Below, one piece after another: positions 53,576 through 53,672 of a stretch of DNA of 64,000 nt. Made by a program: the position numbers and the translations under genes. The DNA is taken from positions 1-64,000 of the IMG/VR virus record IMGVR_UViG_3300011335_000809. One strand, 5' to 3'. Every line of letters starts with the position of its first letter. The first letter of the stretch is position 1. The stretch is from a virus. Below the pieces are notes generated by a model. That model saw nothing but the letters and a program-made list of their open reading frames with translations. It had not been told where the DNA came from and did not search any database.

Positions 53576-53672
53576 AATTATCGCCAGATGGGTTCTGTAT
53601 TTCAGCATAACACCCAGTGACCGATCAAATGTTTTAACTTATGTTGGGGACATCAGATAGAGTTTCAACCCC
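53576..53672 (-). ncRNA. Conserved two-hairpin leader element of tRNA array 1
   Basis: Shares GGUGUUAUGCUGAAAUACAGAACC and UUGAAACUCYAUCUG with 63611-63742, with compensatory stem changes. Confidence 0.7.

Follow-up and report, generated by a model that had tools for sequence, protein, structure and literature searches.

The window examined here is a stretch of 64,000 nucleotides (nt), the first 64 kb of the 115.6-kb IMG/VR virus record IMGVR_UViG_3300011335_000809, which represents a fragment of an uncultured freshwater giant tailed phage (CheckV 34%). ARAGORN called 16 transfer RNAs (tRNAs) in the window, all on the minus strand, which is also the strand of the RNA described below. A sequence-only reading of this DNA had reported a duplicated RNA motif heading both minus-strand tRNA arrays and had placed it downstream of a sigma70 promoter and ahead of the first tRNA; we found both copies at the positions it gave, in the tRNA sense and flanked as described. 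In each copy this leader RNA starts 12-17 nt past a sigma70-type -10 box and ends 30-50 nt ahead of the first tRNA. Its 24-nt core, GGTGTTATGCTGAAATACAGAACC, has exactly two matches in the window (53591-53614 and 63626-63649, both minus), with none expected from 100 shuffles of the window, and again two across the whole 115.6-kb record; the 15-nt block of hairpin A, TTGAAACTCYATCTG, matches exactly at 53654-53668 and 63723-63737. Judged from its sequence and covariation, the leader represents an uncatalogued family of pseudoknotted RNAs that is specific to the start of phage tRNA arrays. The transcription and processing of the long, untranslated tRNA operons of large phages have hardly been studied. 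The parts of the two copies are listed below, S1 and S2 being the helices and L1 the conserved loop of the pseudoknot.

53688-53715 (-): promoter of array 1, sigma70-type (TTGACA, 16 nt, TAAATT, TG-extended)
53578-53672 (-): leader copy 1, short form (pseudoknot, hairpin B and GAUAA tail)
53646-53672 (-): copy 1, 5' part of the pseudoknot, with S1 formed by 53672-53669 and 53649-53646
53668-53661 (-): copy 1, conserved loop L1 (UUGAAACU)
53660-53650 (-): copy 1, 5' strand of S2
53622-53632 (-): copy 1, 3' strand of S2 (ACAUUUGAUCG), partner of 53660-53650
53583-53621 (-): copy 1, hairpin B, with outer stem GUCA/UGGC, inner stem UGGGU/ACCCA, invariant internal loop 5'-GUUA / 5'-GA and a 2-base-pair cap below a variable apical loop
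53472-53547 (-): tRNA-Val(UAC), first gene of array 1, 30 nt past the leader
63759-63786 (-): promoter of array 2, sigma70-type (TTGACA, 16 nt, TAGACT, TG-extended)
63589-63741 (-): leader copy 2, long form (pseudoknot, inserted linker hairpin, hairpin B and hairpin C)
63715-63741 (-): copy 2, 5' part of the pseudoknot, with S1 formed by 63741-63738 and 63718-63715
63737-63730 (-): copy 2, L1
63729-63719 (-): copy 2, 5' strand of S2
63673-63711 (-): copy 2, linker hairpin (CCAGU...ACUGG, variable tip), which copy 1 lacks
63657-63667 (-): copy 2, 3' strand of S2 (UCAAUUGAUUG), partner of 63729-63719
63618-63656 (-): copy 2, hairpin B, with outer stem GUCC/GGGC, inner stem UAGGU/ACCUA and the internal loop as in copy 1
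63589-63613 (-): copy 2, hairpin C, an A/U-rich stem with a bulged U and a YGAG loop, found in the long form only
63485-63560 (-): tRNA-Thr(UGU), first gene of array 2

In both the short and the long form, an A/U-rich spacer with AAUUU(U)A stands ahead of the first tRNA. Parts of the window are contained in 18 metatranscriptome runs, and contigs from four RNA-library studies span the leader together with tRNA-Val (53468 to at least 53734) and reach upstream of the predicted promoter, to 53793-53904. Because these RNA-library sequences are contigs in which DNA carry-over is possible, they are silent on the start site, the end, the level and transcription itself, and the lack of coverage beyond 53917 is equally uninformative.

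The fold was examined in an alignment of 57 distinct leaders (A1), to which all column numbers refer. The sequence-only reading had modelled the motif as two hairpins, A and B. The stem of hairpin A (S1) and hairpin B are both real, but they are not independent, since a pseudoknot links them: bases in the 3' part of the 19-nt "loop" of hairpin A form helix S2 with conserved bases immediately before hairpin B, the two strands being CYAUCUGNUGN and NCANUUGAUYG. Covariation is seen at two positions of S2, the pair 27-97 (UA 31, GC 14, AU 11) and the pair 30-94 (AU 31, UA 25). Columns 26-30 with 94-98 were paired in 98.6% of cells, whereas sliding the partners by 1-3 columns left at most 47% paired and removed the both-sided changes. 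S1 is a 4-base-pair stem whose loop-adjacent pair, columns 11-31, is CG in 27, GC in 17 and UA in 11 leaders. For S1, S2 and hairpin B over the 57 sequences, 88% and 98.6% of cells were paired, against at most 54% for slid partners. Furthermore, RNAalifold independently predicted S2 and hairpin B, and lengthened S2 by invariant pairs to columns 20-104. The core thus consists of S1, the 8-nt conserved loop UUGAAACU and the 11-position helix S2 with two mismatches, abutting hairpin B. This is the layout of an H-type pseudoknot, a class of fold and not a family, in which the loop pairs downstream, and both helices are supported.

Most of the conserved letters are explained by the pseudoknot, among them UGAUYG, for which two separate hairpins gave no reason. 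The G-U pairs, of which one is invariant, are possible only on the tRNA-sense strand and would be C-A on the opposite one, and the structure therefore belongs to the tRNA-sense RNA. Minimum free energy z-scores were about 0 for the two leaders and for each hairpin taken singly, so that folding energy alone gives no support and the structural case rests on covariation. From these patterns of paired change, it is almost certain that the structured, pseudoknotted RNA is genuine. A nested extension of hairpin A (UUGA/UUGA) was also considered and rejected: it can form in the long form only, and the variable columns track the pseudoknot partner instead.

The stem differences that had been noted between the two copies of hairpin B (UGGGU/ACCCA versus UAGGU/ACCUA, and GUCA/UGGC versus GUCC/GGGC) are present, and the 57 distinct relatives confirm that they covary. 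In particular, the pair 108-142 is CG in 32 and AU in 23 leaders, the pair 110-139 is UA in 50 and CG in 3, the pair 111-138 takes five types (GC 36, GU 14, CG 2, UA 2, AU 1), and the pair 120-130, which caps the internal loop, is GC in 51 and CG in 6. The invariance claimed for the core of hairpin B held among close relatives, where the core is identical, but not in other phages, where the apical 8-10 nt differ; the conserved part is GGUGWUAUS...SAGAACC, with an apical loop free in both sequence and length. The internal loop is asymmetric, 5'-GWUA opposite 5'-GA, and is flanked by two short helices. Its suggested resemblance to an S-turn is not borne out at the level of sequence: the canonical sarcin-ricin/bulged-G consensus is 5'-AGUA-3' opposite 5'-GAA-3' with a conserved bulged G, and the conserved strands here, 5'-U-G-W-U-A-U-3' / 5'-A-G-A-A-3', have one nucleotide too many and carry U or A in place of the bulged G. 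Non-canonical A-G and U-A pairs in this loop are possible. The two additional hairpins of the long form also change on both sides. The linker hairpin varies in length among relatives and differs in both strands of its stem (for example GGAUU/AAUCC in L027), and hairpin C folds alike in nearly all 31 distinct variants of the long form, with stems such as ACAGUAUUAC/GUGAUUACUGU versus ACGGAAUUGC/GCAAUUUCCGU.

Searches for relatives recovered the leader from further contigs. An exact 20-mer of the core was found in 17 IMG/VR stretches and 77 metagenome contigs, predominantly from freshwater lakes with some marine, and degenerate patterns that freed either the core or hairpin A added further members, for a total of about 50 IMG/VR contigs. 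Two paralogous forms occur, a short one of about 95 nt that usually stands ahead of tRNA-Val and a long one of 120-150 nt that usually stands ahead of tRNA-Thr. A covariance model of the leader (R1) detected exactly two strong copies in the record containing the window, namely copy 1 (107.8 bits, E 1.9e-26) and copy 2 (131.9 bits, E 6.9e-33, over 63611-63748). It also found two copies each in two related genomes of the main clade, G002 (295.8 kb, 100% complete) and G001 (303.6 kb, 89% complete), and four divergent members at 54-57 bits (L141, L162, L165 and L171), one of which is the single copy in G005, a complete 202.7-kb phage with terminal repeats. Among these distant members, L162 has S2 in different letters (GGUGU/ACACC), and the AUC/GAU part is retained along with hairpin B in L165, L171 and L141. 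G002 and G005 have only about a dozen proteins in common, which indicates that the leader spans very different phages. The leader marks the entry of tRNA arrays in dozens of uncultured phages from at least three divergent lineages, with no catalogued relative. Against INPHARED phages, blastn matched tRNA parts only, and no host copy of the leader was found among 185,579 GTDB species at 20-mer stringency; the one match in that scan, in a metagenome-assembled genome of Woesearchaeota, lacked the flanks, scored 15 bits in the model and was taken as chance.

A positional bias to operon starts had been named as a test of the motif, and its position at the head of tRNA arrays is strict: a same-strand tRNA lies downstream in 90 of the 90 distinct instances with enough downstream sequence. 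The first tRNA is at most 100 nt away in 77 of these, and the farthest, at 1.4 kb, lies behind an inserted gene. The distant members, too, head tRNA arrays, of 9-16 tRNAs. On the upstream side, a sigma70-type promoter (TTGACN-16..18-TANNNT) ends 12-25 nt (33 in one case) before S1 in 70 of 74 distinct contexts. In the other four the leader has no promoter of its own and begins about 15 nt past the stop codon of a conserved open reading frame (ORF) of 54 amino acids:

L019 12317-12481 (+): conserved 54-amino-acid ORF, ending about 15 nt before the leader
L103 9142-9306 (+): the same ORF in a second contig

Terminators form a third kind of upstream neighbour. In the window, each array promoter has a strong intrinsic terminator immediately upstream (53727-53760 and 63892-63917, both minus), and in distant members a terminator-like hairpin lies directly 5' of the leader; in L162 and L141, as seen in the sequence, a promoter-like site precedes a terminator-like hairpin that directly abuts the leader. 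Since the leader may follow a promoter, an ORF or a terminator, the constant feature is the boundary between upstream RNA and tRNA array, not the 5' end of a transcript.

A match to a known family with another function would have spoken against a new element. With Rfam 15, both leaders and a distant member gave only noise or nothing at E up to 10, and the only hits above the Rfam gathering threshold in the window were tRNAs and a transfer-messenger RNA (tmRNA); nor did we find a paper describing such a leader. We also compared it with known systems. The put RNA of phage HK022 is about 70 nt long and consists of two stem-loops in a V shape with a short triplex and no pseudoknot; it occurs as two paralogous copies per genome (putL and putR) behind early promoters, acts over at least 10 kb, and on its own, as RNA, brings about processive antitermination and antipausing through the beta' zinc-binding domain (PMC9378689). 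Like put, the leader is a candidate for action in cis on transcripts of the host sigma70 polymerase. It occurs in two paralogous copies per genome with a sigma70-type promoter upstream (in the window's record, G001 and G002), each heading a long early transcription unit, and it is a folded RNA with conserved unpaired nucleotides and no dedicated phage protein identified. Unlike put, it measures 95-150 nt and combines an H-type pseudoknot with an internal-loop hairpin, and it heads tRNA arrays only, whereas put heads protein-coding early operons. The lambda nutL/nutR sites and the boxB-boxA-boxC of rrn leaders, which serve antitermination with Nus factors, are likewise leader elements of long transcripts, the rrn leader shielding untranslated RNA from Rho; boxB, however, is recognised through a conserved apical loop, whereas in hairpin B the apical loop varies and the internal loop is conserved, and the phage leader has in addition a pseudoknot. 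The eps-associated RNA (EAR) of Bacillus is a pseudoknotted processive antiterminator located inside an exopolysaccharide operon. The leader resembles EAR in being a pseudoknotted RNA of about 100 nt with conserved junctions that may be situated within a transcript, the four ORF contexts being examples, but EAR belongs to a bacterial exopolysaccharide operon, and no sequence relation between the two was detected, the leader having given no Rfam match. Finally, the tRNA cluster of phage T4 encodes stable non-tRNA RNAs, species 1 and 2 (rnaC and rnaD), of unknown function. Compared by description, these are also structured non-tRNA RNAs co-transcribed with phage tRNAs, yet they lie within or after the cluster as tRNA-sized processed products, whereas the leader always comes first and is pseudoknotted.

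We tentatively suggest that the leader could be a cis-acting anti-termination or anti-Rho element for tRNA arrays, a reading that we regard as possible but well short of probable; the functional readings were ranked from anatomy, and antitermination is inferred from position only. The RNA would fold while emerging from the host sigma70 RNA polymerase and would affect the elongation complex in cis, through binding to the polymerase in the manner of HK022 put RNA or through a block on Rho, and transcription would then continue unaborted through an operon of 5-10 kb that is largely untranslated. Lying at the boundary between translated or regulatory RNA and untranslated RNA, the leader sits where Rho would load first, and its two-copy, promoter-proximal layout mirrors putL/putR. 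When we searched for a partner protein by comparing the window's ORFs with the distant loci, matches were found only in the related phage L162. The proteins common to G002 and G005 include PhoH, sugar-nucleotide enzymes, dCMP deaminase, GP88 and a PD-(D/E)XK nuclease, with no obvious RNA-binding or antitermination factor among them, although small or fast-evolving proteins would escape such a search. The lack of a conserved partner protein fits action through the host machinery. Should the leader prove to be an antiterminator that works as RNA alone, it would be a counterpart of put with a separate evolutionary origin and could serve as a portable tool for expressing long non-coding operons.

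Several observations weigh against this suggestion. We found no intrinsic terminators within the arrays for the leader to override, which would leave only Rho or pausing as its target; and canonical terminators close the operons, although polymerase modified in the manner of put would be expected to pass such sites. A third tRNA cluster of G002 (277.3-281 kb, plus strand; L203 17300-20000), with 8 tRNAs over about 3.4 kb, has a TTGACT-17-TAAATT promoter and a leader of only about 24 nt without the pseudoknotted RNA, and so serves as an internal control. In addition, an unfiltered R1 search of the complete HK022 genome gave nothing significant, around the put sites either, with 10.4 bits (E 0.77) at best, and the match near PR has no hairpin B at all; and boxA of the E. 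coli type (UGCUCUUUAACAA) was absent at up to 3 mismatches from 53548-53690 and 63561-63760, a consensus that may not be that of the host.

The same anatomy can be read as a processing, folding or insulation signal, in which the knot would mark the 5' boundary of the tRNA precursor by separating it from upstream messenger RNA, by guiding or blocking a host RNase, or by preventing the first tRNAs from misfolding with upstream RNA. We consider this rather doubtful. The position immediately ahead of the first tRNA, within 100 nt in 77 of 90 instances, the shared A/U-rich spacer, and the fact that the element stands equally behind a promoter, an ORF or a terminator would all suit such a role. However, RNase P alone is able to free the first tRNA, the third G002 cluster does without such a signal, a classical RNase III site would call for a longer and less interrupted helix than hairpin B, and about 40 invariant nucleotides are not obviously required for such a task.

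The compact fold, together with the strong conservation of the unpaired L1, the internal loop of hairpin B and the GAUAA tail, might instead point to a stable small RNA of 130-200 nt that RNase P releases and that acts in trans to titrate or regulate some factor of host or phage, comparable to the stable non-tRNA RNAs of the T4 tRNA cluster. Co-transcription with tRNAs would supply a built-in 3' processing site, and no conserved phage partner protein was found. Yet the strict position at the array head would be needless for action in trans, no complementary sense-strand target of the conserved loop was found in the window, and accumulation is unsupported, as RNA-library contigs cannot reveal ends or levels; we judge this reading unlikely.

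A riboswitch-like or tRNA-binding sensor, in which the pseudoknot and internal loop would bind a metabolite or the tRNA elbow and tune expression of the array, is in our view quite unlikely. Its size, its pseudoknot and its invariant junction nucleotides are typical of aptamers, U-N-N-N-A pentads that appear compatible with T-loops can be read in both conserved unpaired blocks, and a terminator-like hairpin lies directly upstream in every inspected context, with which a sensor might act jointly. That terminator, however, is upstream of the element and not downstream, no conserved expression platform is seen (hairpin B is the last in the short form, and no U tract follows hairpin C), and no riboswitch family matches. 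More specifically, it seems improbable from the conserved letters that UUGAAACU and GWUA/GA form a pocket or T-loop-like platform for a tRNA elbow, or for a small molecule reporting translation status, that would act jointly with the upstream terminator to gate tRNA production. Either a sensor or a small RNA set free from the transcript would add a new layer of phage control over translation, and a sensor gating the arrays would represent a new riboregulator class that controls tRNA genes rather than protein genes.

Pistol-type ribozymes have a hairpin loop pseudoknotted to a downstream strand, followed by a hairpin with a conserved internal loop. The architecture of the leader recalls this layout, and ribozymes are common in phages, but no Rfam ribozyme model matched even at E up to 10, and a small self-cleaving ribozyme cutting the transcript at the array head is accordingly very improbable. 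A DNA-level site or short coding sequence in place of an RNA element is extremely unlikely: an ATG inside hairpin B does open a 47-codon frame in copy 1, but the corresponding frame has 12 codons in copy 2, the ATG is lost in UAUC variants, indels are not in threes, and the G-U pairs and compensatory changes fit only tRNA-sense RNA, so that the coding reading was rejected for want of a conserved frame. Whichever function applies, the leader RNA could readily be proposed as an Rfam family and is amenable to simple bench tests.

Other features of the arrays and their surroundings were noted in passing. Two promoters with a perfect 12/12 sigma70 consensus (61846-61875 and 56152-56179, both minus) lie inside or after array 2 and have no leader RNA. 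An additional tRNA at 63400-63471 (-) was detected by Rfam only (37.3 bits) and not by ARAGORN, and its anticodon loop reads GUG (His-like) by eye. A Pfam search of the ORFs inside the tRNA arrays gave a methyltransferase only. In array 2 of relatives, ARAGORN called, between tRNA-His and tRNA-Arg, a tRNA whose anticodon has four bases, ctct (L143 1198-1273, minus; L144 1864-1939, plus), which could be an artefact or a frameshift-type tRNA. A PD-(D/E)XK endonuclease gene lies among the tRNAs of the third G002 cluster. Array 1 is closed by a phage tmRNA (49425-49809, minus; Rfam RF00023, 106 bits) that ARAGORN did not call in the window; it did call the homologue in G002, with the tag AEDNVISYNFTSRDAVALAA. 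About 1 kb past the tmRNA that ends array 1 in G002 is a gene for a PhoH-like ATPase (L199 8654-9430, minus; G002 188.7-189.4 kb), the best-conserved protein between G002 and G005 (53% identity), which in G005 lies far from the array. At the other end of the window, an unusually long tail sheath protein of 1304 amino acids is encoded at 134-4048 (-), with its sheath domains confined to the last 300 residues.
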